The notes below the pieces were generated by a model that was not told the DNA's origin, did not search any database, and saw only the letters and a list, made by a program, of their open reading frames with translations. DNA of 64,000 nucleotides from NCBI GenBank assembly GCA_015232575.1, contig JADFZL010000026.1, positions 13,688-77,687 of the forward strand. Direction: 5' to 3'. The stretch is from Candidatus Rifleibacteriota bacterium. Its GTDB lineage: Bacteria; Muiribacteriota; Ozemobacteria; Ozemobacterales; Ozemobacteraceae. Positions 3,757 through 22,900 of the stretch are shown piece by piece (the stretch's first letter is position 1; each line of letters begins with the position of its first letter). The position numbers were made by a program, and so were the translations under genes.

Positions 3757-4242
3757 GTGTCATATATTGGTCAAGTAATTGAATTTAAAAACGATTCAGC
3801 TGTAATAGAGATAGGTGTTTTCAGTTCATGTAATAAATGCAGTGGATGCGGTGGTAAAAGCATTTTTGCAGGTTCGTCTGACAAGAAAAGAACTATTATC
3901 GCAAAGACCGGAAATCATTCGCTTCTGAAAGGTGACTTTGTTGAGGTTTCTCCAAAACCCGGCGCCCAATCAATGGCAGCACTTCTTGTATTTGGCATTC
4001 CATTATTCTTTTTCTTCATCGGACTTGTTTTCGGAACGTCTATACTTTCCATGTTCATTCAAATTGAGGCAAAAGACTGGATAAATCTTCTGCTTGGCTT
4101 TCAAGGATTGATAATGGGTTTTGCAGTATCTTTTCTGATAATAAAAATTGCCGGATTCGATTTTTTCATGCTTCAGGTAGAAAGAAAGATTTCCGAGGAA
4201 GAAATTAAAAACGCCGGGTCCTGTGATTTGGCTTCCCGCTAA
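3757..4242 (+). CDS. RseC/MucC-family protein (SoxR-reducing system / sigma-E positive regulator family)
   Basis: N-terminal G-V-x-E...CNKCSGCGG cysteine cluster followed by two hydrophobic helices, the typical RseC layout. Confidence 0.55.
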   Translation: MSYIGQVIEFKNDSAVIEIGVFSSCNKCSGCGGKSIFAGSSDKKRTIIAKTGNHSLLKGDFVEVSPKPGAQSMAALLVFGIPLFFFFIGLVFGTSILSMFIQIEAKDWINLLLGFQGLIMGFAVSFLIIKIAGFDFFMLQVERKISEEEIKNAGSCDLASR

Positions 4243-4808
4243 TAATTATTAACAACGTCTTCGGAGGGACGAAAACGCGGATCTTTTACTGCTTCGCTTT
4301 CTTCTTTTATTACAACAAGCACGGTCTGCTTATGTGATTGGGTCTTTCTACTGCCAGCTGGTTCAATTTCCGTAAGAATCTCAAGAATATAAGTACCCGT
4401 TGAGGTTGTATTTCCGGCAGTCGTCCCCTCAGAAATCTTAAATTCCTTGAGATGTTTTGTAAGGATTTGAGTTTTTCCATTTTCAACTCTTTCAAGTATG
4501 GGCGGAACAAACTTGTAGGAAATGTCCAAAAGGGCAACTCCTGATGGTTTTTTCAGTTCAAGTGTACTGTTTGAGTATTTAAAGGTACCCCTTCTGGCAG
4601 ACACGATATCTCTTTCAAGCGCTCTCAATGATATTTCGGCCTCGCCTGTCACAGCAGCTCTGGCTGCAGAAATAGACTGGTTCTCCTGAGCGCTTCTGAG
4701 AATGTAAAAAGCCCCTCCGCTGAGAATAACAAAAAGAAAAAGAGCGATAATGGTTTCGACAACAGTAAACGCCTTTTTGGTTAATCCTGAAGAACCCATA
4801 AAAAACAT
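4239..4808 (-). CDS. prepilin-type N-terminal cleavage/methylation domain protein (pseudopilin / minor pilin)
   Basis: N-terminus MFFMGSSGLTKKA|FTVVETIIALFLFVIL: class-III signal with Phe at +1, Glu at +5 and a hydrophobic helix. Confidence 0.7.
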   Translation of the reverse strand: MFFMGSSGLTKKAFTVVETIIALFLFVILSGGAFYILRSAQENQSISAARAAVTGEAEISLRALERDIVSARRGTFKYSNSTLELKKPSGVALLDISYKFVPPILERVENGKTQILTKHLKEFKISEGTTAGNTTSTGTYILEILTEIEPAGSRKTQSHKQTVLVVIKEESEAVKDPRFRPSEDVVNNY

Positions 4809-5224
4809 AATTCCTCTTTCTTCTTTTCGTTATTGTTTTTTGTCCAGCAAATTGTTGCTTTTATTTCAGAAATCGTCTTTTCAGAATTGTTGAATTTAGC
4901 TTTAACAAAGAGTTCAAAATCTTTTTGAGCTTTCTGAATATCAAGAATTTTCTGCAGATTCGTAATGTAAAACTGGCCGGGCATGTCAAATTCAGTTTGA
5001 GGAGCAAAAGACAGCTTCTGGAATTCCTTGTATGACTGGCTCATTACTTCGTTTTTCAAAGAATTCAGGATTTCCCTTGCCATAGCAAGCTTTGATGTTT
5101 CAACTGCTGTGGCAGAATATCCTGAGATGCTCTTGTAAATTGGAATCAGTCCAAGAATAAGGATAAAAATTGCAATTGTTATTTCCAAAATGGATAAACC
5201 AGAATCATATCTTCTGATATTCAC
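4781..5224 (-). CDS. prepilin-type N-terminal cleavage/methylation domain protein (pseudopilin / minor pilin)
   Basis: MNIRRYDSG|LSILEITIAIFILILGLI: G at -1, E at +5, hydrophobic helix. Confidence 0.7.
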   Translation of the reverse strand: MNIRRYDSGLSILEITIAIFILILGLIPIYKSISGYSATAVETSKLAMAREILNSLKNEVMSQSYKEFQKLSFAPQTEFDMPGQFYITNLQKILDIQKAQKDFELFVKAKFNNSEKTISEIKATICWTKNNNEKKKEELCFLWVLQD

Positions 5225-5242: not shown

Positions 5243-7693
5243 TTAATTCTTTGCATAGTCAAAGCGTGTCCACCTGGCACCAATTGAGCAGAAATATCTT
5301 TTCGGCTCATATTTCCCAACATCCCTCATCATTGCAAGCATCGTCGGAGAAAGCGAGTGAGATTCATAAAAAACCTCAATTCCATCAACCGATTTTCTAT
5401 CAAATTGATTAATAACTAAATTCCCTTTAATAGTCAAGTTATTTCCAGATTTATTCATTATACACTGATTTGAAAAACATGCTGCCTCAATAACACACGA
5501 ATTATGAACAAGAATAGCTCCTCTTCTGGCAATCAGTGAAAACACCGTTGGGGAATCTGAAGAATGCACTCGTCTTATATCAGCGTAAACATCGATCACA
5601 TCTTTTGCTACGAGAATTCCCCTACCCTTGACTTTCATTGGCGAACTGATTTTCAGATTTCCCTTGATATATGTAACACCATTACATAAGAATGTACCAT
5701 CTGCGTCAAAGCGCTGAGAGTCTGCCCAGAAATCTGATTCATTCTCATAAAAATAATTTGCCTTTTTTGCATACTGAAGCGGGCTGTACAAATTCGCCGG
5801 AAGATTAGCTGAAATATTTGGGTTCCAGCGGCTGGTGTCTGATGTGTCATAGGCAGGGTAATCCGGTAATCCGTATGGAACTTTTCCAATTTTATGGTTT
5901 GAATAAATCATTGTTTTATCGTCACTATAGTCATGTTCGGGTTGTACTTGCCCTGCAAATCGGGAATACTTCATGTCAAGATAACCTTCCAGTTTCAGTG
6001 AAAGTGGGTATTCGAGATGAAATTTTCCAAATAAAAGAACAGGGTTGGATAATTCTTCGTTAAATGAGATTATTTTCTTCAGTTCCTGACAACCTGGTCC
6101 GAATGTTTCTGAAAAATTGTCTAATTTTCCAGTATATGGAAAATCGAACCAGTAAAGCGGAGGTGGCGAATCACGCCAGGTTGCACTGAAAATACAGTTA
6201 AAAGTTTTAGCAGCTTTTTTATCCATTAACAGGGCATTGAACTCTGAAGAAAGTGGATCATTGGGAGTTCCAAGATAGATCGGTATTTCCATAGCTTTTG
6301 GTCCGGAATAATTCAGACGAACCATACCTGGAAAAGATGCAACCGACTCAAGGTTCGTAGTGGCATTTGCAGAAAAACCATCCGAAAGCTTTAAATACTC
6401 GCCACCTGGAAGATTATGTATTGTCATGGTAGCAGCCTGAGCTGGGTCCTGGAATTTCAGCTCGCTTCCTATTCCAGTCGGGACAGGGTCTGGTGATTCA
6501 ACAGCCCGTGAAGAATTGGCAACAAAGAAGGTATATTCCGGAGCGACCGGCATTGTATCTGAAACTTTTAAATCTTTTTCGGCAATCAGAATTCTTCTTA
6601 CAGGAACCAGATTAGCAGCAGGTTTGAATTCGACTATTGCCATGAAACGTATTTTCCCTGTTTTTTCAACAAAAGTATCATTTTTAAAGGAATTTGGTAC
6701 AGAATTTTTTATTACAGATGGAAGATTCTGAAATCGCAGACTGGCTGCCTGAAAAAGATAAGATGTGTTCCAGGAAATACTTTCCCAGCCAGTATTCATG
6801 AGTTTAGCGACAAGATTCGGCATTGAAAAGCTTCCGCCAACATCATCAAGTTTAAGGAATTTTTTGACAAGATCGTTGCAGTCTATTTCTCCATTCAGGG
6901 TCCATGTTAAAAGCGCTACATCAATTTCAATTTTATAGGCAATTACAGCAGGAGCTTTCTGCGAAAGGAAAAGTGTAACGTCCACAGCAGGAGGTCCTGG
7001 AACATCATGTGAAGGAGGTACAGGCAATTTGAAAGTCAATGTATAATCACTTGATAAATCGTTTTTAAGATTCTTGGGTGAACCACCTGAATATGAAAAT
7101 ATTGTGTCATAAAATTTGCCGGGATCGCCATGTGCCGGAGTTGATTTCTCTGAAATTCCGGTAACTGAATAATTTGGATCTTTCGAAGTTATTGCTGAGG
7201 CTGAAGAAATTAGTATATTCAGTGTTACTGAAGCAGTCCCGCCGAGATTTTGTATTACACTGCCGAGCGGTGAAAGAATTGGACAGGTTGAAGAATACTG
7301 ATAAGCAACCAAAAGATCGCTGTTAAGTTTTAATGGAGCATCAAGTCCGGATGTTGAACCAAGTGTTCCAGGAGTAACTCCGGCAGATGAATCAAGTAGA
7401 AGTGGCACCCGGAGAATCGCATACCATGGATTTGGAGCGGTTTTCTCATTATTCATGTGATCTTTTATGTATCGAATGCCAAGATCAACAGCGGCCTCAG
7501 CTAATGCTTCGGCTTTCTTTTCATTACTCAGTAATTTTGTTGAAAACCTTTTTGCAATAGTAGATCTTGAAAAGAAAAGAACTATTACCAGAAGAATAGC
7601 CAGAATACCAACAACAAAAATAAAAGCAGAACCAATTCGACACTTGCTTTTATTTTTGCAGAGTCTATTTAGTTGGTAATTTTCGATCTGCAC
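5243..7693 (-). CDS. large (816 aa) N-terminally anchored protein of the pseudopilin operon; C-terminal region looks beta-helix-like
   Basis: Single N-terminal TM (GSAFIFVVGILAILLVIVLFF). Co-oriented and overlapping with the upstream and downstream genes. No known family recognised. Confidence 0.6.
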   Translation of the reverse strand: MQIENYQLNRLCKNKSKCRIGSAFIFVVGILAILLVIVLFFSRSTIAKRFSTKLLSNEKKAEALAEAAVDLGIRYIKDHMNNEKTAPNPWYAILRVPLLLDSSAGVTPGTLGSTSGLDAPLKLNSDLLVAYQYSSTCPILSPLGSVIQNLGGTASVTLNILISSASAITSKDPNYSVTGISEKSTPAHGDPGKFYDTIFSYSGGSPKNLKNDLSSDYTLTFKLPVPPSHDVPGPPAVDVTLFLSQKAPAVIAYKIEIDVALLTWTLNGEIDCNDLVKKFLKLDDVGGSFSMPNLVAKLMNTGWESISWNTSYLFQAASLRFQNLPSVIKNSVPNSFKNDTFVEKTGKIRFMAIVEFKPAANLVPVRRILIAEKDLKVSDTMPVAPEYTFFVANSSRAVESPDPVPTGIGSELKFQDPAQAATMTIHNLPGGEYLKLSDGFSANATTNLESVASFPGMVRLNYSGPKAMEIPIYLGTPNDPLSSEFNALLMDKKAAKTFNCIFSATWRDSPPPLYWFDFPYTGKLDNFSETFGPGCQELKKIISFNEELSNPVLLFGKFHLEYPLSLKLEGYLDMKYSRFAGQVQPEHDYSDDKTMIYSNHKIGKVPYGLPDYPAYDTSDTSRWNPNISANLPANLYSPLQYAKKANYFYENESDFWADSQRFDADGTFLCNGVTYIKGNLKISSPMKVKGRGILVAKDVIDVYADIRRVHSSDSPTVFSLIARRGAILVHNSCVIEAACFSNQCIMNKSGNNLTIKGNLVINQFDRKSVDGIEVFYESHSLSPTMLAMMRDVGKYEPKRYFCSIGARWTRFDYAKN

Positions 7694-8538
7694 TTTAAAT
7701 CCTCCCGGATCTGATTAATCTTCCAGTCAAAGTATTTCTGTGCCTTTTCCTGAGCCATTTTTTTTTCTTCTACCAAGTACAATAATATTACACTTCTTTT
7801 CTGAAAATCGTTCATTGCCTGATAATATCGTCTCTGGTCTTTTATCCATTTGAAAAAATTTGTGTTTTTTTCAAGTCCGATGGCAGTTAGATCTTCTTTT
7901 GATTGAAGTTCACCAAGTTGCTGAAGATAATCAAAGTATTTTTCAGGATTACTTAATTCACGTGCACAGTTTGCCAGGTATTTGAGAGCAATACCTTTCA
8001 TTATTGGTGTTGATGAGGAATCTGAAAGCATCTGCAAAAATGAAGTTTCAGCCATTGAAAAGTCATTTTTCTCAGCAAAACTTTTTCCATCCCGGAATGA
8101 TTGACAAAGGCGCAATCTGTAAAGCTCACGTGTCTCAGTCGCAAGATTCGGATTATTTATCTGACTCAGGATAAAATTCTTACGGGCTTCTACGTTTTCC
8201 TTCTCAAAATTGTCGATTTTTTCCTGTGCAACTTTCAAAGCCTCAATATCAGCAGGGCTTAATTCATTAACTGGAGATATTCTTCCGGGCAAAATAGGTA
8301 TATGCTTTGTTTTTAAGGGAAGAGTATTAGAAGGATTCTCCGCATGAATTTCATCTGGAAGAAGCAGAGAAGGTGTTCCAGCACCCGAAGTAAGAAATGA
8401 TTCAGGAAGAATATTTGTCAAATCCTGGGGAAGTTCTTTCTTATCTTCAATAGCGTTCTGGTTGCTTCGAAAAACTAATAAATACATCCAGATTGCTGAC
8501 AAAATCAAAAAAGATACAATCAGGATTCTGTTTTGCAT
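7669..8538 (-). CDS. hypothetical membrane-anchored protein (first gene of the pseudopilin operon), possible TPR-like helical region
   Basis: N-terminal TM (ILIVSFLILSAIWMYLLVF). Overlaps the next gene by 25 nt. Confidence 0.55.
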   Translation of the reverse strand: MQNRILIVSFLILSAIWMYLLVFRSNQNAIEDKKELPQDLTNILPESFLTSGAGTPSLLLPDEIHAENPSNTLPLKTKHIPILPGRISPVNELSPADIEALKVAQEKIDNFEKENVEARKNFILSQINNPNLATETRELYRLRLCQSFRDGKSFAEKNDFSMAETSFLQMLSDSSSTPIMKGIALKYLANCARELSNPEKYFDYLQQLGELQSKEDLTAIGLEKNTNFFKWIKDQRRYYQAMNDFQKRSVILLYLVEEKKMAQEKAQKYFDWKINQIREDLKCRSKITN

Positions 8539-8639
8539 TATTCTGCAATTTCCTTAAACACTCTGAATTTTATGCCGCCTTCACCGCAACAATAAGACTA
8601 TTAATTTCCTATTACATTCTACCATTGAGAAACAAAAAA

Positions 8640-8676
8640 ACCAATAAAAAAACCCTCCGATTGCTCGGAGGGATCA
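8640..8676 (-). terminator. Rho-independent terminator of gene 8688-11069
   Basis: On the minus strand: CCCTCCG-agcaat-CGGAGGG (7-bp GC stem) followed by a T-run (TTTTTTTATTGGTTTTTTT). Confidence 0.75.
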
Positions 8677-8687
8677 AAAGTTTTAAA

Positions 8688-11069
8688 TTACTGACTCTGC
8701 TTTGTTTTCAGAGTATCATATTCTGCTTTGGCTTTATTCATTTCCTGTGCAACTTTCTGAGCGTCTTCCTGTCTGCCTTTTGCAATCATATCATTGTAGA
8801 GTCTGTAGAGTTCCTGATATTTTGCATAAGCAATCTGGACTTCTGAAGCATAAGTTCCAACAGGTTCTATTTCACTTGATGCCGAAACCTGCACATCCTG
8901 TATGTTTGCGGTTACTGGAATTTCGCTTGATCCTGCAACTGCACCAATTCCTACACTCTGACCCGGGTCAATTGTCGACTGATTATAAGGATTTGCTCCG
9001 GTAGGAGTCGCATAAGCCTGAGCTGGAATGCTGTCTTTGCCAAACAATTGCGCAATTTTATGAGCTGCCCAGTTTCCAACATAACCACCAACGATACCAC
9101 CTATTACTGTTCCTATCGGACCCAATGCAGAACCGAGTATTGCACCGGCTGTCGAACCAATTGTCTGTCCACCAACACCTATCCAGTCGATGTGTTTGAA
9201 AGCTTCTTTAATTGAGAATTTTCCATTTTTAAGATCACCGGCAAGATATGCTCCTACTGAACCACCAACGATTGAACCGAATGTCGGAGCAAGTGCTGAG
9301 AGAATACCACCTACAACCGGTACTGCTGTAAGGAATGGAACGAAGAATGATCCGGCAGCTGCACCAGTAACTGAACCAACAACACCACCTGCAAATTCTG
9401 CCGAACAAACAGTTTTTACAGCTTTCTTAAGACTTGGCTTTTCACCATTCATCATCTGAGTAACAAGATCAACACCAACAGTTATTCCAGCTGTCATAAG
9501 AAGATTCTTGGGGCTGAAACCTGACTTTACACTATCTTTAACATTCTGGAAACCCTGGTTAGTCATTGCCTTTCCAGCTTCATAACCCTGGCGTAATTTG
9601 CTGGATGTAACTTCTTTAAAACCAGGTTTTGATGAATCGCCCTGCTGTGAAGTCTGTGCTGGAACTCCATCGTCTCCAACCTGGCCATTCTGATTGCCCT
9701 GGTTGCCCTGGTTGTTCTGATTTCCTTGATTATTCTGATTACCCTGGCCTGGGTTTACACCATCATCACCGGTGTTCTGATTATACTGATTGCCCTGACC
9801 TGATTGGTTACCTTGTCCTGACTGGTTGCCTTGGCCACTCTGATTGCCCTGTCCTGACTGGTTGCCTTGACCAGATTGATTGCCCTGTCCGCTTTGATTT
9901 CCATGACCGGATTGGTTGCCCTGTCCGACCTGGCCTGACTGATTTCCTTGTCCTGACTGATTACCCTGCCCTGACTGATTTCCCTGCCCTGACTGATTTC
10001 CCTGTCCGGGAACATAACCATCGTCACCAGCAGTTCCCTGGTTATATTGGTTTCCCTGGCCTGATTGATTACCTTGGCCAGCTTGATTACCTTGGCCAGA
10101 CTGATTTCCCTGACCTGACTGGTTGCCTTGTCCGGCTTGATTACCCTGACCACTTTGATTGCCCTGTCCGGGAACATAACCATCATCAGTTGGGGTTGTG
10201 GTTGGTTTTGGTGTCTGACTTCCACGTCCAAAAAGTCTCGCAAAACGATCTTTGGCACTCTGTAAAGCATCGCCTATTTTACTACCGGTAGATTTTGCAA
10301 CTGTCTGACCAGACTGATTACCAGAATTAAAATTATCTCTTACATTCTGACCAAAGCTGCTGGCTTTATCACTAACTGCCTGCAAACCATCTTTTCCAGC
10401 CTGGTAAGTTTTATTACCAAAATTTTGTCCGCTTTCCCTGCCAGCGGTAAAACTATCTTTGATCTGGCTTCCATAGCCGCTGAGTTCATTCTTTATGAAA
10501 GAACCGGTGCTCTGATTTCCGCTCTGTCCAACGGTTGAAACTTTGCTGTCTGCTGCTGTAACGCCCTGAGAAACCTGAGCATTTTGTGTGGACTGGTTAA
10601 CCGGAACTGTTTGGCCACCTGCATTGGCATTATTGTACTGACCAGTCTGAACAGACTGATTTCCGGGAATATTCGCTTGACCGCCTGAATGATAAGGTGT
10701 TTGAACAGTCTGATTATTAGCTACTACACCTGCGCCCGACGGCGAAGTATTTACCTGAACTGGTTTCCCTGCACTTGTAGCTGCTGTAGTAGCGGCAGTT
10801 GATCCTGCAGAGGAATCGAAAAGAAGTTTGTAGTACTGACTCATTTCGAGTGCAATAGGTTTTCCATCAACATATCTTACGTTGTAATATGTTGTCCTGG
10901 TTCCAGTTTTAACAGGAACCCACTGTCCTGGGGTAATCTGGAAACTTGTACCATCAAGATTGGCAACAGTTGTACCCTGGTACGCCATCAATGGTGTTTC
11001 AAGAAGGAACCCAGCAATCAACACGATACACAACAACCTTGAAATTAGTCGAAGATGTTTTTGTTTCAT
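8688..11069 (-). CDS. secreted protein with Q/N-rich hexapeptide tandem repeats (GNQSGQ)n, glycine-zipper hydrophobic segments and a C-terminal coiled coil
   Basis: Signal peptide (LLCIVLIAGFLLETPLMAYQG). About 180 aa of GNQ(S/A)GQ repeats punctuated by DDGYVPGQ...GNQYNQ. GxxxG-rich segments (GGVVGSVTGAAAGSFF...; IGTVIGGIVGGYVGNWAA). Terminal helical heptads. Confidence 0.75.
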   Translation of the reverse strand: MKQKHLRLISRLLCIVLIAGFLLETPLMAYQGTTVANLDGTSFQITPGQWVPVKTGTRTTYYNVRYVDGKPIALEMSQYYKLLFDSSAGSTAATTAATSAGKPVQVNTSPSGAGVVANNQTVQTPYHSGGQANIPGNQSVQTGQYNNANAGGQTVPVNQSTQNAQVSQGVTAADSKVSTVGQSGNQSTGSFIKNELSGYGSQIKDSFTAGRESGQNFGNKTYQAGKDGLQAVSDKASSFGQNVRDNFNSGNQSGQTVAKSTGSKIGDALQSAKDRFARLFGRGSQTPKPTTTPTDDGYVPGQGNQSGQGNQAGQGNQSGQGNQSGQGNQAGQGNQSGQGNQYNQGTAGDDGYVPGQGNQSGQGNQSGQGNQSGQGNQSGQVGQGNQSGHGNQSGQGNQSGQGNQSGQGNQSGQGNQSGQGNQSGQGNQYNQNTGDDGVNPGQGNQNNQGNQNNQGNQGNQNGQVGDDGVPAQTSQQGDSSKPGFKEVTSSKLRQGYEAGKAMTNQGFQNVKDSVKSGFSPKNLLMTAGITVGVDLVTQMMNGEKPSLKKAVKTVCSAEFAGGVVGSVTGAAAGSFFVPFLTAVPVVGGILSALAPTFGSIVGGSVGAYLAGDLKNGKFSIKEAFKHIDWIGVGGQTIGSTAGAILGSALGPIGTVIGGIVGGYVGNWAAHKIAQLFGKDSIPAQAYATPTGANPYNQSTIDPGQSVGIGAVAGSSEIPVTANIQDVQVSASSEIEPVGTYASEVQIAYAKYQELYRLYNDMIAKGRQEDAQKVAQEMNKAKAEYDTLKTKQSQ
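9654..10187 (-). repeat. 18-bp tandem repeat array (encodes GNQSGQ), higher-order organised into three blocks
   Basis: The period-18 repetition CTGATTGCCCTGTCCTGA / CTGGTTGCCTTGACCAGA is visible directly in the DNA. The opposite-strand ORFs here are artefacts of the repeat. Confidence 0.85.
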
Positions 11070-11276
11070 AACATACTCCTGATTATTCTTATATTTTTTT
11101 TTCTCAATACCATAAAAAATGTACCCCCATGATTGATTTTACCCATTCTGAACGAAGGTTCCCCGTCTTCATTCAAAATCCCCCGGTGTACCTAACACCT
11201 TGTATTCAATTATAGCAGAGAACTTAAATTCCGCAACGTTTTCGTTAAACTTTTTTTGAAAAAATGTAATTTTTTG

Positions 11277-11305
11277 TTGACCAATTGTATAAACGCGGTT
11301 ATTAT
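11277..11305 (+). promoter_or_regulatory. candidate sigma70-type promoter (TTGACC-17-TATTAT) for the OYE gene
   Basis: TTGACC at 11277-11282, a 17-nt spacer, TATTAT at 11300-11305. The ATG is at 11317 with no Shine-Dalgarno, so the leader would be very short. Confidence 0.3.
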
Positions 11306-11316
11306 CAACTCCTGAT

Positions 11317-12417
11317 ATGAATAGACAAATATTCTCAAAGTTTCGCCTGAAAGATAAGGAATTCAAGAATCGTCTCTTCCTAGCCGCTCTGGCAACTCAA
11401 TACGCCGATAAAAATGGAAGAGTCACTGATTCAATGATTCAGTATTACATTCATTATGCTCTTACGGGTGTTGCTTTTCTGGTTGTTGAAGCAGCATCAG
11501 TTTCGAATGAAGGGCGTGGCTGGTCCAGACAACTTTCAGCAAATCATATTGATGCACTTCCGGGTTTAACACGTCTGGCAGATGAAATTGGCGAACGTGG
11601 CTCATTGCCAATCCTTCAACTTCATCATGCAGGAAGGCAGGCGCTTCCTTCAGACAAAAATAATATCGTGGTCGGACCATCTGCGATACGCTGTCCTGTG
11701 CTAAACAGGCCAGTAAGAGTATTATCCCCGAAAGAAATTTCACAACTGGTCGAAAAGTTTACTTTTTCCGCAGAACTGGCATATAAAGCCGGTTTTCAGG
11801 GCATTGAGCTTCATGGTGCTCATGGATACCTTTTACATCAATTTGTATCCCCAATCACAAACAAACGTGATGATGAATACGGTCTGAACAACCCTGAACC
11901 GTACAAGTTTCCACTGGAAGTCGTCAGATCATTGCGTCTTAATTTTCCAAAAATGTTAATTTTCTATAGAATATCAGCGAGGGACTATCTGCCAAAAGGC
12001 TTGACAATAGACAAAACTTTGCCTTTTGTACAACGTTTACTGGAAAATGGAGTTGACCTGATAAGCGTATCAGGTGGAATGTATCAGTCTCTCCACGGCC
12101 CTGAATCTATTGTTGGGCCATCCACTCCAATGGGAGTTTTTAGAAACGATTCCAGAGCAATTAAAGAATTTACAAAAGCTCCGATTGCTGTAACTGGAAA
12201 GATTCAATTTCCCTCACTGGCAGACGAGATAATCACCAACGGAGAAGCTGATTTGATCGGACTGGGAAGAATGATATTAAGAGACAACGACTGGGTAAGA
12301 AAAGCATCAGGTGAGGTTTTAGAACCAGTAAGAGAGTGCCTGCTCTGCAACAGATGCAATTACCACAAAAGAGGCTGCCCTGATGATTCAGATAAGCCTT
12401 TCTGGCTCAGGGAATAA
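11317..12417 (+). CDS. NADH:flavin oxidoreductase, Old Yellow Enzyme family
   Basis: OYE TIM-barrel motifs (FKNRLFLAALATQ..., LPILQLHHAGRQA, IELHGAHGYLLHQFVSP) with a C-terminal Cys cluster. Confidence 0.75.
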   Translation: MNRQIFSKFRLKDKEFKNRLFLAALATQYADKNGRVTDSMIQYYIHYALTGVAFLVVEAASVSNEGRGWSRQLSANHIDALPGLTRLADEIGERGSLPILQLHHAGRQALPSDKNNIVVGPSAIRCPVLNRPVRVLSPKEISQLVEKFTFSAELAYKAGFQGIELHGAHGYLLHQFVSPITNKRDDEYGLNNPEPYKFPLEVVRSLRLNFPKMLIFYRISARDYLPKGLTIDKTLPFVQRLLENGVDLISVSGGMYQSLHGPESIVGPSTPMGVFRNDSRAIKEFTKAPIAVTGKIQFPSLADEIITNGEADLIGLGRMILRDNDWVRKASGEVLEPVRECLLCNRCNYHKRGCPDDSDKPFWLRE

Positions 12418-14464: not shown

Positions 14465-16402
14465 GTGTTCTCAAAGCCCAATAATGTCAGGTTTTTCTGT
14501 CTCACTTTATTTTCATTCTTTGTGTTTCTGACATTTACAATCACCCCAGCCAATGCACGAACCCGACCTCTTAAAGGTTTATTTCTAATGCTTGATCCTG
14601 GTCACGGTGGAGCAGATACAGGTGCAATTGGTCCCGGTGGGCTTAACGAAAAAGACGTTAATCTGAGAGTGTCCAGATATCTCAAACAGTTGCTTCTGGC
14701 CGATGGCGCACGAGTAATGATGACACGTGAGGATGACACTTTTCTTTCTCTTCAGGAAAGAGTTGATATTCTTAACAGCCATAAGCTTGATCTTTTTGTG
14801 TCAATTCACCATAATGCGACCCTTGAAAAAGTTGTGAAAAATCGTGGAGAAGTTTTTTTTAATGCCTTTGATGATGCTATTTCCCGTGCTCTGGCACACA
14901 ATATAAGCGATAAAATTGTTCAAAATGGTCTTGCCACAGAATCACTGGCTATCCCTGGAGGTTTTTACCTTTTAAGGAACAGCAGGTGTCCATCTGTGTT
15001 AACTGAAGCAAGTTTTATGACTGTTCCAAAGAATGAAAAGATGTTGCGCACTGGCAAAGCTCTTACGCTGGAAGCTGAAATTATACGTCAGGCAATCAAA
15101 GAAGCGTTTGAAAAACCTCAGCTTAAAGTTGAAGCTGTGACATTGAATCCATCTGTAACAGACAGCCCTTATTTCAACATTATTTTTACATCCAACAAAC
15201 CAGTCATATTTGCTGAAATTCAATGTCTTGAGAATTCCAGCATTAAATTTGGATTCGAAAAACTTCCTTCATTTGGAAACTTCTATTGCCTCTACAACTA
15301 TTCTCCGTTACCGCCTGGATACTTCACACTCCTGACAAGGTTTAAATCTTCTGACAATTCTGTTTCCTTCCTTGAAAAATTAAAAATTCAGGTAAAAAGC
15401 GGCACAGAGCGAATTGTACTCAGACCCCTTTCAGAATATATCCCAAAAAACTTTATCGGAAGCTTTCCAGTTGTTCTTGCACTGGAAGACATCGATGGAA
15501 ATCCTCTGAAATCGAAGAAGGATTTTACCTTTTCTGTAAATGGCGTTTCAGGCAGCAAACTTGAAACTTCAGAAGATGGAAAAGCGCTGATTTTTCTCAA
15601 AATAGACAATAATTCGGGCGAAAAAATTGAACTGACAGTGAACTCAGAAGGGTTATCAACAACCACGATCTCTCTGCCTGTTTTACAAACTTCAAAAACT
15701 GTTGTAATGGGCAAAGCCATTTCAACACTTACAAAGTGTGGTTTAGAAAAAGTCAAAGTTAAATATGCTCCAAACAAAACCGTAAGTACAATTTATGGCG
15801 GTTATTTCTTTTTCGAAAGCGCACCTTTTTTCGGAAATCGCAAAATCGAATTCGTACCTCCTTATGGATATAATACAACTAACACCAATTTAAAACTCAG
15901 TGGTTCTGATTTTTGTTCTGTAAATGTAGATATATCTCCAGTTAATGGGAATTTATACGGAAAAAGAATTGCAATTCTTGCTGAACGTTCTCACGACAAC
16001 TGGATCCGCCCATTCGTGAAACAGCTCATGTATTCCGGAGTAGATGTTTTCAGGCTTAAAATACCTGAAGAAGCTGAAATGCCTGTTGCCGAAGCAATCA
16101 AACAGGCAAATCTTATCGACAACCTCTCGCTAGTTGTATCGGTTAAACATGAAAACTCAAAAAATCTTCTTTTAAGACATTATCACAGGGGTGGCACTGG
16201 AAAAAAGATACTGGAAGCATTAAAAGCAGAATATATGAAGAAGATTTCAAAATCAGTGTGCACCGTAACCGCAGGTTCTGACTATGAATTAGGTCACACA
16301 GGTGCGCCATCTATGGTTATCGTACTTCCAACGAAAGTAAGTGTTGAAAGAGCAAGGAAGATTATGGAGATATTGTATTCTGTAACAGGACGGAATATTT
16401 AG
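14465..16402 (+). CDS. N-acetylmuramoyl-L-alanine amidase (Amidase_3) with about 400-aa C-terminal extension of unknown function
   Basis: LMLDPGHGGADTGAIG...LFVSIHHNA...SVLTEASFMT. GTG start and signal peptide. Confidence 0.75.
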   Translation: MFSKPNNVRFFCLTLFSFFVFLTFTITPANARTRPLKGLFLMLDPGHGGADTGAIGPGGLNEKDVNLRVSRYLKQLLLADGARVMMTREDDTFLSLQERVDILNSHKLDLFVSIHHNATLEKVVKNRGEVFFNAFDDAISRALAHNISDKIVQNGLATESLAIPGGFYLLRNSRCPSVLTEASFMTVPKNEKMLRTGKALTLEAEIIRQAIKEAFEKPQLKVEAVTLNPSVTDSPYFNIIFTSNKPVIFAEIQCLENSSIKFGFEKLPSFGNFYCLYNYSPLPPGYFTLLTRFKSSDNSVSFLEKLKIQVKSGTERIVLRPLSEYIPKNFIGSFPVVLALEDIDGNPLKSKKDFTFSVNGVSGSKLETSEDGKALIFLKIDNNSGEKIELTVNSEGLSTTTISLPVLQTSKTVVMGKAISTLTKCGLEKVKVKYAPNKTVSTIYGGYFFFESAPFFGNRKIEFVPPYGYNTTNTNLKLSGSDFCSVNVDISPVNGNLYGKRIAILAERSHDNWIRPFVKQLMYSGVDVFRLKIPEEAEMPVAEAIKQANLIDNLSLVVSVKHENSKNLLLRHYHRGGTGKKILEALKAEYMKKISKSVCTVTAGSDYELGHTGAPSMVIVLPTKVSVERARKIMEILYSVTGRNI

Positions 16403-21341: not shown

Positions 21342-21442
21342 TTTCCGGATTAATTTCTCAATTGTATAATCCGATAATGACTTATCGCAAAAAATTTTTA
21401 TGCAAAAAAAATAAAATATTTCACATCAGGAGTTCGGGGCAG

Positions 21443-22900
21443 ATGAAACAATCAGGACAAATGAAAAGCTGCAGTTTATTAATACTAATCGCTATGTGTT
21501 TTTGCTGTTCTTCAGCTTTTTCACAGGAAAACAGAATTACCGATATTCGCTTCTGGCAGAGCCCCGAAGAAGCCCAGATTGTCCTTGATCTCACCTGGAC
21601 TCCTGAAACATCGCCTGTTCGAGCAATGGAAGACGGATCATTTTTCTTTGATATCAATGACGGAAATTTTCGCCCCGGGCAAAAAACGTTCCCATTAAAC
21701 AATGCTTTTATTACTTCGCTTAAAGTTCAGGAATATCCAACAGGAATCGTAAGAATATCCTTTAAACTTCCACCATCAGTTCAATACAAGAACTTTCTTC
21801 TTCCAAGAGCATCATCAAAACCAGACCGCATTGTAATCCTTCTTGGTGAATCGCCTACTGCGCAGGCTCAGAGAAGAAACGATGAGCAGCTTGAAATTTC
21901 CAGATTGAAATCACAGAATGTAAAAATAGTTGTAATTGACCCCGGACATGGCGGTGAAGACCCTGGAGCAAGTCATAGCGGAATTGTTGAAAAAGATTAT
22001 GTACTGCGAATGGCAAAGCTGATAAAGGCCTACTTTGATAAAGATCCAAGATACAAAGCTGTTTTGACTAGAACCGGCGACTACATCATTCCGCTTCAGA
22101 GACGCTCACAAATAGCTGAACAACTTGAGGCAGATGCTTTTGTTAGTGTTCATGTAAATTACAACAGAAAGAAACATATCCGTGGAACTGAGGTTTACTA
22201 CGAATCAAATCGTGGAGCAGTAGGTGAAGCGGAAAGGCAAACCGCTGACCAGGAAAATCAGCAGGATCTGATTGGCGGTGTTTATGATTCTTATCCTCAA
22301 ATAAAAAACAAAAATAACTTTCTGAAACAACAGGCTGCAAATATGTTCAAAAGCAGTCAGTTCGCAGATAAAATGGATCAGTGTCTTGGTTCGGCAATTC
22401 AGGGTTTACCAAGCGCTGGAGTTAAAAGAGCAGGTTTCAAGGTTCTTCACTCGGTATCAATTCCGTCCATTCTTGTTGAACTTGGCTATACTTCAAACCC
22501 AACTGATTCATGGTATCTACGAAATGCCAATGGCCAACTGAGACTCGCATACTCAGTATATTTGGGTGTTAAGAATTTTCTTGAGGGAAAAATATACGAT
22601 GGTATAGACACAAATTACCTCCAGTTTGCTTCTAATGTCGAACATGAAAAAAAAGTTCGTGCAGAAAAAAACCGAGTTTCACGAGAAAAACGCGCTGCAA
22701 TGTTAAGAAACAGTCAAGCTTACAAGGTTAAAAAGGGAGATACTCTAAAAAAAGTTGCATCAAAATTTAACGTCAGAGTAAATACGATTATAGAAGTTAA
22801 CTCACTTGGAAAAAGAAGAAATCTCAAAACAGGTGAACTTTTAAAAATTCCTATGATGGCACAAAATAAAAGAAAAACGGATAAAAATAAAATAACATAA
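21443..22900 (+). CDS. AmiC-type N-acetylmuramoyl-L-alanine amidase (AMIN - Amidase_3 - LysM)
   Basis: Signal peptide MKSCSLLILIAMCF... AMIN-like N-terminal domain. IVVIDPGHGGEDPGA...FVSVHVN. C-terminal LysM (YKVKKGDTLKKVASKFNVRVNTIIEVN). The track start (TTG 21362) is less likely. Confidence 0.75.
   Translation: MKQSGQMKSCSLLILIAMCFCCSSAFSQENRITDIRFWQSPEEAQIVLDLTWTPETSPVRAMEDGSFFFDINDGNFRPGQKTFPLNNAFITSLKVQEYPTGIVRISFKLPPSVQYKNFLLPRASSKPDRIVILLGESPTAQAQRRNDEQLEISRLKSQNVKIVVIDPGHGGEDPGASHSGIVEKDYVLRMAKLIKAYFDKDPRYKAVLTRTGDYIIPLQRRSQIAEQLEADAFVSVHVNYNRKKHIRGTEVYYESNRGAVGEAERQTADQENQQDLIGGVYDSYPQIKNKNNFLKQQAANMFKSSQFADKMDQCLGSAIQGLPSAGVKRAGFKVLHSVSIPSILVELGYTSNPTDSWYLRNANGQLRLAYSVYLGVKNFLEGKIYDGIDTNYLQFASNVEHEKKVRAEKNRVSREKRAAMLRNSQAYKVKKGDTLKKVASKFNVRVNTIIEVNSLGKRRNLKTGELLKIPMMAQNKRKTDKNKIT

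Follow-up and report, generated by a model that had tools for sequence, protein, structure and literature searches.

A glycine-zipper C-terminal module and a variable repeat spacer in an exported protein of Candidatus Riflebacteria

A stretch of 64,000 nucleotides from a Candidatus Rifleibacteriota bacterium (assembly GCA_015232575.1, contig JADFZL010000026.1, positions 13,688 to 77,687), in the following called the window, contains at 8688..11069 on the minus strand an open reading frame (ORF) that starts with ATG and encodes a protein of 793 amino acids (aa) with a long array of GNQSGQ hexapeptides. A sequence-only reading by a model had described the product as a secreted protein with amyloid-like or phase-separating repeats. 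The ORF proved to be a genuine gene with an exported product, but the GNQSGQ array is this organism's version of a fast-changing hydrophilic spacer and not a conserved amyloid or prion domain. The defining part of the protein is a C-terminal module of about 313 aa (C-module), which the sequence-only reading had not singled out, just as it had not touched on the unrelated passengers of this module or on the link to a pseudopilin-like gene cassette. The locus delimits one family that is found almost only in Riflebacteria and in which a reusable glycine-zipper C-module apparently tethers very different exported domains, with three paralogue types per genome, one of which is tied to the pseudopilin-like cassette.

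The C-terminal module and its family

The family-defining C-module was delimited by sequence comparison and comprises the last 313 residues of the protein (aa 481-793; 8691..9629, minus strand). When it was compared with a collection of 5.8 billion sequences, 85 proteins were found, the named sources of which are nearly all metagenome-assembled genomes (MAGs) of Candidatus Riflebacteria/Ozemobacteraceae, besides a few evidently mis-binned genomes; Candidatus Wallbacteria is the only other named source (P0152, P0230). An exhaustive HMMER search with the whole protein gave 210 cluster representatives, in which hits that covered nothing but the repeat led to collagen-like GNQGxQG proteins and are compositional. 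A collagen-like (G-X-Y)n reading of the array itself was dropped because the glycine spacing in GNQSGQ alternates between 4 and 2. In a scan of species-representative genomes, 80 loci with the C-module were detected, from which the full ORFs were rebuilt. The best full-length C-module in the genome collection is 74% identical, one partial copy reaches 82%, and a metagenome scan revealed no relative above 78% identity. The species representatives thus do not include the organism of the window, and neither the metagenome scan nor exact-sequence look-ups yielded a copy from the same species.

The C-module occurs in several copies in essentially every MAG examined, and three or more types of paralogue (A, B, and C) can be distinguished per genome. 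The C-module of the GNQSGQ protein is 56-74% identical to that of its type-A and type-B orthologues and 34-39% identical to that of the type-C group. Type A, to which the GNQSGQ gene belongs, is recognized by the signature SWIKNELxxYGxKIKDSF together with Q/S/G repeats, and the 793-aa protein has the type-A layout in its proper order, namely an (E/Q)xPLMA signal peptide, a beta domain, the SWIKNELxxYG segment, a Q/S/G spacer, and the C-module. Type B has WDPxxHPRDPQTGRFI motifs and GSxADDVAQAG repeats, and type C has a different, helical N-terminal half. Two loci, L001 and L004, are not of type A, and L001 is a type-B paralogue. In type-B proteins (e.g. L009, L037, L039, L044), one to three copies of the motif W(D/N)PxxHPRDPQTGRFI(S)HEEAIxRGL are found, which yields a spurious match to the Plectin repeat, and GSxADDVAQAG units of 10 or 13 residues replace the Q-rich repeats.

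The C-module is also joined to passengers of very different kinds. Three HHH_3 domains in a ComEA-like arrangement (P0192), a MATCAP/DUF1704 peptidase (P0094), an HMA_2 domain (P0091), and an HExxH protein (P0107) have been found on the same module. All inspected passenger fusions begin with an N-terminal signal-like segment, and the named ones come from Riflebacteria MAGs. Unrelated exported passengers on one C-module are what one would expect if the module served for anchoring or sorting.

In public annotations, the genes of this family are systematically cut short or interrupted at the repeats, which is of practical relevance for anyone who works with them. Gene calls are often shortened to 288-295 aa and start at an internal MTNQG, because N-runs, frameshifts, or contig ends fall into the repeat region, and the real ORFs have about 500-765 aa. 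The true ORF of Ca. Ozemobacter sibiricus has 732 aa, and examples lie at 8669-10867 (L001) and 8745-10888 (L003) of their loci. L003 has an N-run inside the repeat array, and upstream of the C-module many contigs stop within 1 kb.

No curated family covers the C-module, and while its parts are of known kinds, their combination and the reusable module are undescribed; literature searches returned nothing on this family. Riflebacteria are uncultivated, and they have been reported to exceed all other phyla in the density of unknown gene families per genome, 26 of their families being putatively lineage-defining (PMC10849945).

The C-module was modelled with AlphaFold2 (AF2) from an alignment of 62 sequences, and the model is all-helical. 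A long amphipathic lead-in helix precedes the glycine-zipper region (aa 520-675; 9045..9512, minus strand; AF2 and motif count), which consists of five hydrophobic helices (aa 520-540, 557-581, 587-615, 629-649, and 651-675) with K-rich loops between helix pairs at aa 541-557 and 611-627. The sequence-only reading had correctly pointed out the glycine-zipper segments, as there are eight overlapping GxxxGxxxG motifs within aa 556-680, and the family alignment has invariant glycine columns. The region is followed by an acidic disordered tail (aa 676-742; 8844..9044, minus strand), in which the predicted local distance difference test score (pLDDT) is below 50 and which the model shows as disordered over aa 684-736, and by a C-terminal antiparallel two-helix hairpin (aa 743-793; 8691..8843, minus strand; pLDDT above 90). 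The hairpin helices comprise aa 743-763 and 767-792 and contain conserved tyrosines (Y271/Y275/Y278 in module numbering). A C-terminal coiled coil had been proposed for this part, but the model has the short hairpin and not a long coiled coil.

Searches of the 793-aa protein against Pfam, NCBIfam, PHROGs, and PADLOC gave a single sub-threshold match, which is to the Pfam family Gly-zipper_Omp (PF13488) at aa 634-672 with 24.1 bits and an expectation value (E) of 3.5e-5. With a gathering cut-off of 25 bits, the match is 0.9 bit short, and the cut-off is passed by the relative P0120 (26.8 bits) and by several other family members. In a Foldseek comparison of the C-module model with the PDB, nothing was significant. 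The best entries (E 0.85-1.1) were four-helix glycine-rich membrane proteins of the NDUFA11/Tim22 type, a possible fold kinship that the model offers as a lead only. A profile search against PDB sequences had as its sole match a glycine-zipper stretch of 63 residues in a phage tape-measure protein (E 2.9e-4); colicin E1 came at E 0.7.

The repeat array as a fast-changing spacer

The repeats lie in a hydrophilic spacer of 200 aa that was delimited by composition (aa 281-480; 9630..10229, minus strand). It contains 26% Q, 16% N, 28% G, and 10% S, which makes 42% Q+N overall, besides 4% D+E and 5% hydrophobic or aromatic residues, with a net charge of -7. The repeat core as such, seen with Tandem Repeats Finder (TRF) and by direct reading, has 178 aa (aa 295-472; 9654..10187, minus strand) and is organized in three blocks of GNQxxQ, very much as had been read from the sequence with an estimated 180 aa. 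Its 22 hexapeptides are 14 GNQSGQ, 2 GNQAGQ, 1 GNQSGH, 2 GNQYNQ, 2 GNQNNQ, and 1 GNQGNQ. The DDG(Y)VPGQ-type openers are present as well, with DDGYVPGQ at aa 295 and 349 and DDGVNPGQ at aa 435, whereas the claim that every block is closed by GNQYNQ applies to blocks 1 and 2 but not to block 3, which ends with GNQGNQNGQVG. A fourth such motif, DDGVPAQ (aa 466-472), stands after block 3 without any repeats behind it.

The blocks are thus punctuated by an acidic motif D(D/P)DGxx(V/L)P at aa 295-302, 349-356, 435-442, and 466-472. DDGxxP-type punctuation is also seen in one type-A orthologue (L063) and in seven type-B orthologues (L006-L009, L013-L015), where it sits 30-90 residues upstream of the C-module. 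As the motif is found only in these eight, DDG..VP punctuation was dropped as a general family trait. The type-A orthologue L063 shares the block organization with its (QSG)n runs that are punctuated by NQGDPDGVPA. Two ORFs that overlap the array in other frames, at 9629-10291 on the plus strand (220 aa) and at 9755-10270 on the minus strand (171 aa), are by-products of the repeat and not genes.

At the DNA level, the period of 18 bp that had been claimed for the array is confirmed by TRF in three arrays (9787-9927, 9929-10004, and 10046-10166), but the claimed proneness to slippage is not, since the matches of 70-89% describe imperfect repeats and the codons are scrambled. The 16 GNQ[SA]GQ units are encoded by 15 distinct DNA strings with a mean pairwise identity of 76%, and no exact direct repeat anywhere in the array is longer than 23 bp. 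Serine codons in the units include TCA, TCT, AGT, and AGC, glycine codons are spread across GGC, GGT, and GGA, and the glutamine codon CAG accounts for 56% within the array versus 85% in the rest of the gene, i.e. codon use is more even in the array. Among the 14 identical GNQSGQ units, third positions are identical to a degree of only 0.42. Such scrambling, with 15 versions of 16 units and 23 bp as the longest repeat, argues that the array is no slippage hot spot at present, and it also makes a collapse or expansion artefact implausible.

Among all 22 units, the proportion of synonymous differences (pS) is 0.93 and that of nonsynonymous differences (pN) 0.145, which gives a pN/pS of 0.16. It follows from this disparity that selection acts on the protein and maintains the hexapeptide by purifying selection, whereas the underlying DNA diversifies and is codon-scrambled. 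The pS of 0.93 is judged to be higher than plain saturation would yield, and together with the even codon use it hints at a selection for DNA diversity or at tRNA balancing. The arrays of other family members are codon-scrambled as well, and in one case an exact peptide run of 55 aa is accompanied by a longest exact DNA repeat of 26 bp; for this comparison it has to be considered that perfect DNA repeats would fail to assemble and hence be missed. The spacer is in any case a clean natural example of a peptide repeat that is kept under selection with diverse codons.

In all 31 measurable type-A orthologues, a tandem-repeat spacer is found at the very same site between the AKDRxxKxF motif and the C-module, but the repeat units differ and can be QSG, SGQSEQ, SSEQSSQSGQ, or 17-, 19-, 25-, and 28-mers. 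The spacers of the orthologues have 51-142 aa (median 95), compared to the 200 aa of the GNQSGQ protein, which has the longest and most Q/N-rich spacer of the 32 type-A proteins compared. Median values in the orthologues are 9% for D+E and 2% for Asn versus 4% and 16% in the GNQSGQ protein, Ser has a median of 25%, and hydrophobic residues make up 0-8% of the orthologue spacers and 5% of the spacer studied here. Low genomic GC accounts only weakly for the Asn richness (rho -0.39, p = 0.03), given an Asn content of 0-7% in the other orthologues with low GC.

The classical criterion for Q/N-rich prion-like domains is the presence of 30 Q+N within 80 residues. The Q/N-rich composition noted before is real, as the best window of the GNQSGQ protein contains 43 Q+N per 80 residues. 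In the spacers of the orthologues the median maximum is 23, and just 2 of 31 reach at least 30, which means that this density is not a conserved property. The amyloid-like or phase-separating nature that had been proposed is therefore not shared by the orthologues, whose units differ, and the amyloid or prion reading is based on composition alone.

The earlier reading had further expected a variable length of the repeat region, and this variation does exist in the family. As the nearest relatives are too distant for strain-level repeat counts, close orthologue pairs were compared in their place. Pairs with C-modules that are 94-100% identical with at most one gap have, for example, spacers of 125 versus 71, 117 versus 112, 103 versus 100, and 98 versus 89 aa. 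The spacer is an indel hot spot between near-identical orthologues, with length changes over evolutionary time. It had been stated as a possible refutation that homologues could reveal a simple disordered linker in a known enzyme family; the region is indeed a linker of low complexity and variable form, but the family that has it is undescribed and not a known enzyme family.

Gene signals, N-terminal half, and the neighbouring cassette

Upstream of the ATG, at a distance of 6 nt, direct reading finds a Shine-Dalgarno-like AGGAG (11076..11080, minus strand). The first 29 residues (10983..11069, minus strand) read as a signal peptide of the Sec type, with the basic n-region MKQKHLRLISR, the hydrophobic core LLCIVLIAGFLL, and then ETPLMA, and AF2 places a helix at residues 3-23 within this segment, in agreement with the secretion that the sequence-only reading had assumed. 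The (E/Q)(A/T)PLMA motif before the likely cleavage site is kept in orthologues. The protein does not qualify as a lipoprotein, since the cleavage region lacks an L-x-x-C lipobox and the sole Cys (C14) is located at the beginning of the hydrophobic core.

The signal peptide is followed by a small conserved beta domain (aa 30-85; 10815..10982, minus strand; VTPGQW...YNVRYV(N/D)G.P(V/I)ALEMSQY), which AF2 predicts with five strands and a short helix at a pLDDT of about 75-82. No significant fold match was obtained with the model of this domain, and a word-indexed search with the N-terminal 294 aa gave a single match only. After a poorly conserved low-complexity segment rich in S/T/A/Q/N (aa 86-189; 10503..10814, minus strand) comes the conserved segment with the signature that defines the type-A paralogue (aa 190-280; 10230..10502, minus strand; SFIKNELSGYGSQIKDSF ... 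SKIGDALQSAKDRFARLF), which runs from SFIKNELSGYGSQIKDSF to AKDRFARLF and leads into the spacer.

At the other end of the gene, the terminator that had been proposed is present as an intrinsic-terminator-like hairpin (8643..8672, minus strand), which reads CCCTCCGA-GCAA-TCGGAGGG with a following T7 in the DNA and CCCUCCGA-GCAA-UCGGAGGG with seven U in the RNA, and which starts 16 bases past the stop codon. Its stem (8672-8653) has 8 bp, 6 of which are G-C, and the RNA folds with -17.3 kcal/mol (z = -3.4 versus shuffles). The next gene follows after a gap of 150 bp, and from the terminator and this gap a monocistronic transcription of the gene is plausible. No RNA family of Rfam was detected in 8400-11400.

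Directly downstream on the same strand lies a cassette of four genes that encode proteins of 289, 816, 147, and 189 aa. The 289-aa protein (7669..8538, minus strand) has an N-terminal hydrophobic segment and is helical in the remainder, with no family match, and exact-sequence look-ups returned no record for this protein or for the 793-aa protein. The 816-aa protein (5243..7693, minus strand) has an N-terminus, RIGSAFIFVVGILAILL, that resembles GspK or the Verru_Chthon cassette protein A, with a weak match to TIGR02600 (E 0.0044). The 147-aa protein (4781..5224, minus strand) is prepilin-like by direct reading, with G-LSILE and a hydrophobic helix, and has a very weak PilV match. The 189-aa protein (4239..4808, minus strand) resembles the minor pseudopilin GspJ, with A-FTVVE and a hydrophobic helix, and it matches TIGR01711 (E 8.7e-6) and N_methyl (E 0.0049), both under their cut-offs.

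When loci with at least 4 kb of downstream sequence were considered, homologues of this cassette were found to adjoin the type-A gene in 24 of 26 cases, and none was found next to a type-B gene (0 of 20 loci). Cassette and type-A gene point in the same direction at about half of the loci, whereas the cassette is inverted at the others, and the opposite flank, with an old yellow enzyme (OYE)-type reductase and an S49 peptidase, is common to only 3-4 loci. As the adjacency survives inversion while the other flank decays, the gene order argues for a functional tie between the type-A gene and the cassette rather than for co-transcription, and such a tie would be consistent with the gene's own terminator.

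Outside the cassette, 13 larger ORFs of the window were scanned, and no secretin, ATPase, or platform gene was found among them; the ten larger ORFs scanned at 13.5-29.6 kb are ordinary chromosomal genes. Two genes for Amidase_3 (N-acetylmuramoyl-L-alanine amidase) lie within 7 kb of each other on the plus strand (14465-16402 and 21362-22900), the second of which also has AMIN and LysM domains; the pair looks like ordinary cell-wall turnover. A gene for a small membrane protein of the RseC/MucC family (3757-4242, plus strand) converges on the end of the cassette.

Probable role and known systems

We regard it as about equally likely to hold or to fail that the 793-aa protein, once exported, is anchored in a membrane of the envelope, carries its N-terminal part on a flexible hydrophilic stalk, and possibly works together with a pseudopilus module. 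To the observed anatomy, family distribution, passenger diversity, synteny, spacer variability, and codon scrambling, this explanation adds a localization, a topology, a role of the stalk, and a pseudopilus link that we infer as follows. The signal peptide would route the protein through Sec, and the glycine-zipper helices would seat the C-module in a membrane, by default the inner membrane, where the K-rich loops would fit a five-span topology with a cytoplasmic terminal hairpin. At the tip of a long hydrophilic stalk, the N-terminal beta domain could then be held in the periplasm together with the conserved helical segment. The GNQSGQ array would be this stalk and work by its bulk properties (length, solvation, lack of structure) rather than by a specific fold, which would explain why unit sequence, length, and charge are free between species while the position is fixed. 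The protein may work with an apparatus like a type II secretion system or a type IV pilus, as its envelope partner or its cargo, a partnership that is suggested by the conserved adjacency to the cassette.

Several observations weigh against this explanation. The strict conservation of the hexapeptide inside the array argues for a selection on more than bulk composition. The model of the C-module is of medium quality (pLDDT 69, predicted template modelling score 0.42), and no fold or sequence relative in the PDB backs an anchor role. The hydrophobicity of the helices is marginal (+4 to +13 kcal/mol per 21-mer when summed crudely on the biological scale), and an integration by Sec stop-transfer is therefore not assured; an export with insertion elsewhere or an oligomerization would be possible. 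The pseudopilin assignments consist of sub-threshold matches and of N-terminal motifs read by eye, and co-transcription is not general, as about half of the loci have the cassette in a convergent orientation. The adjacency may also be due to a shared ancestry of the gene order.

The marginal hydrophobicity would permit a Sec translocation, and it has to be considered that the protein is a cargo or surface-displayed product of the adjacent pseudopilus system, which would push it across the outer membrane after Sec export, with a zipper that embeds in the outer membrane or a target membrane. The signal peptide would suit such a two-step route, the GspK/I/J-like genes adjoin the type-A gene at 24 of 26 loci, and the Pfam family that matches best is one of outer-membrane glycine zippers. 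We nevertheless hold this to be rather unlikely, as the types B and C share the C-module but lack the cassette, the pseudopilin assignments are below threshold, and secretin, ATPase, and platform genes are missing from the scanned ORFs. Still less probable is a self-assembly of the Q/N-rich repeats into amyloid-like fibres or a condensate, in which case the protein would be a surface or matrix scaffold or an adhesin with the repeats as the functional core. It is true that the spacer stands out by its 43 Q+N in the best 80 residues, its 42% Q+N in total, and its near lack of charge, that tyrosines are regularly spaced at the block borders, that purifying selection acts on the hexapeptides of the array (pN/pS 0.16), and that no other of the 32 type-A proteins has a longer or more Q/N-rich spacer. 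However, the density of 30 Q/N per 80 recurs in just 2 of 31 orthologues, the other spacers have different units with medians of 9% D+E and 25% Ser, and the GNQSGQ spacer itself contains 28% Gly with 5% hydrophobic or aromatic residues. It matches neither the Curlin repeat nor any other amyloid family of Pfam at E <= 0.1, and it takes the position of a linker between two conserved modules, beside the membrane module. A similarly low probability is assigned to a variant in which the type-A protein serves a pseudopilus machine as an envelope scaffold peculiar to this lineage, like FimV/HubP but made from unrelated parts, with an oligomerizing zipper and a Q/N segment that forms a hydrogel-like or weakly self-associating mesh; such a mesh around the apparatus would explain why the exact hexapeptide is kept by selection despite the scrambled codons.

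It is very improbable that the C-module is the domain of a pore-forming toxin or bacteriocin (colicin or CdzC/D-like), for the delivery of which the N-terminal part and the spacer would serve. Disordered Gly-rich N-terminal regions occur in colicins too, glycine zippers are frequent in pore formers, and the sole sequence match in the PDB is the tape-measure stretch of 63 residues, but a module that is 56-74% identical to its type-A and type-B copies across the phylum, present in multiple copies in essentially every MAG examined, and fused to housekeeping-type passengers does not look like a toxin. Colicin E1 was matched at E 0.7 only, PADLOC and PHROGs gave nothing, and there is no conserved small immunity-like neighbour at the loci compared. 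Hardly credible is finally an assembly artefact, i.e. a collapsed or expanded array in an ORF that is no true gene, which the sequence-only reading had named as a way to refute its view. Repeats do break assemblies in this family, as can be seen from the N-run in L003, from contig ends less than 1 kb upstream of the C-module, and from the many public gene calls that are shortened to 288-295 aa. In the window, however, the array is read through without a break in the frame, the conserved modules on its two sides are joined in the same order as in the orthologues, and with 15 DNA versions of 16 units, the longest exact repeat of 23 bp is below any modern read length.

If the anchor role holds true, the C-module would be a new way of fixing proteins in the bacterial envelope, and it would provide a handle for predicting the exported proteome of Riflebacteria.

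Like the Q/N-rich prion-like domains of yeast Sup35 and Ure2 or of the Rho candidate of Clostridium botulinum, the GNQSGQ spacer has more than 30 Q+N per 80 residues, a low charge, and oligopeptide repeats with G, Q, N, and Y. It differs by its 28% Gly and very few aromatic or hydrophobic residues, by a density that is absent from 29 of 31 orthologues, and by being exported with a membrane module alongside. The curli subunit CsgA is likewise secreted and has repeats rich in Q, N, G, and S, but the curlin unit is a strand-turn-strand of about 20 residues with a hydrophobic core, whereas the GNQSGQ unit has 6 residues without hydrophobic positions. There is no match to PF07012, and the scanned ORFs include no csgB/E/F/G-like neighbours but pseudopilin-like, OYE, and S49 genes instead. 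A bacteriocin of the colicin type is not recognizable, with no homology to a pore domain (colicin E1 E 0.7) and no conserved small neighbour.

The cassette itself is reminiscent of the Verru_Chthon cassette (TIGR02600 and partners) and of GspK-I-J, in which a large GspK-like protein is combined with two small prepilin-type proteins, albeit all matches of the cassette are sub-threshold. To our knowledge, no glycine-zipper repeat protein is known as a partner of such cassettes. With TonB and TolA, the 793-aa protein shares a membrane anchor, a variable low-complexity spacer whose composition outweighs its sequence, and a small globular end domain. Its orientation is reversed, however, with a C-terminal anchor and an entry by a cleavable signal peptide, its spacer is rich in Q/N/G/S where theirs are Pro-rich or Ala/Lys-rich, and there is no TonB_C or TolA domain. 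In architecture, there is an analogy to FimV, HubP, and TspA, as these also combine an exported N-terminal domain, long variable low-complexity repeats, membrane helices, and a short conserved C-terminal helical hairpin, and as they too are linked, by genome or by function, to an apparatus for pili or secretion. Differences to FimV/HubP are the lack of LysM, the lack of a match to the FimV C-terminal domain (TIGR03504) in Pfam/NCBIfam at E <= 0.1, the lack of any detectable sequence similarity, and the arrangement of the repeats, which precede the membrane segment, and of this segment itself, which has five glycine-zipper helices versus one transmembrane helix.

The only curated family that touches the 793-aa protein leads to Gly-zipper_Omp proteins and SlyB/PCP, with which it shares a helical hairpin of the GxxxGxxxG kind, although the match covers 39 of the 313 residues of the C-module and stays under the gathering score. 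Proteins of the SlyB/PCP type are small lipoproteins with a lipobox and one hairpin. The 793-aa protein has no lipobox and has five helices, to which the lead-in helix, the tail, and the terminal hairpin are added.

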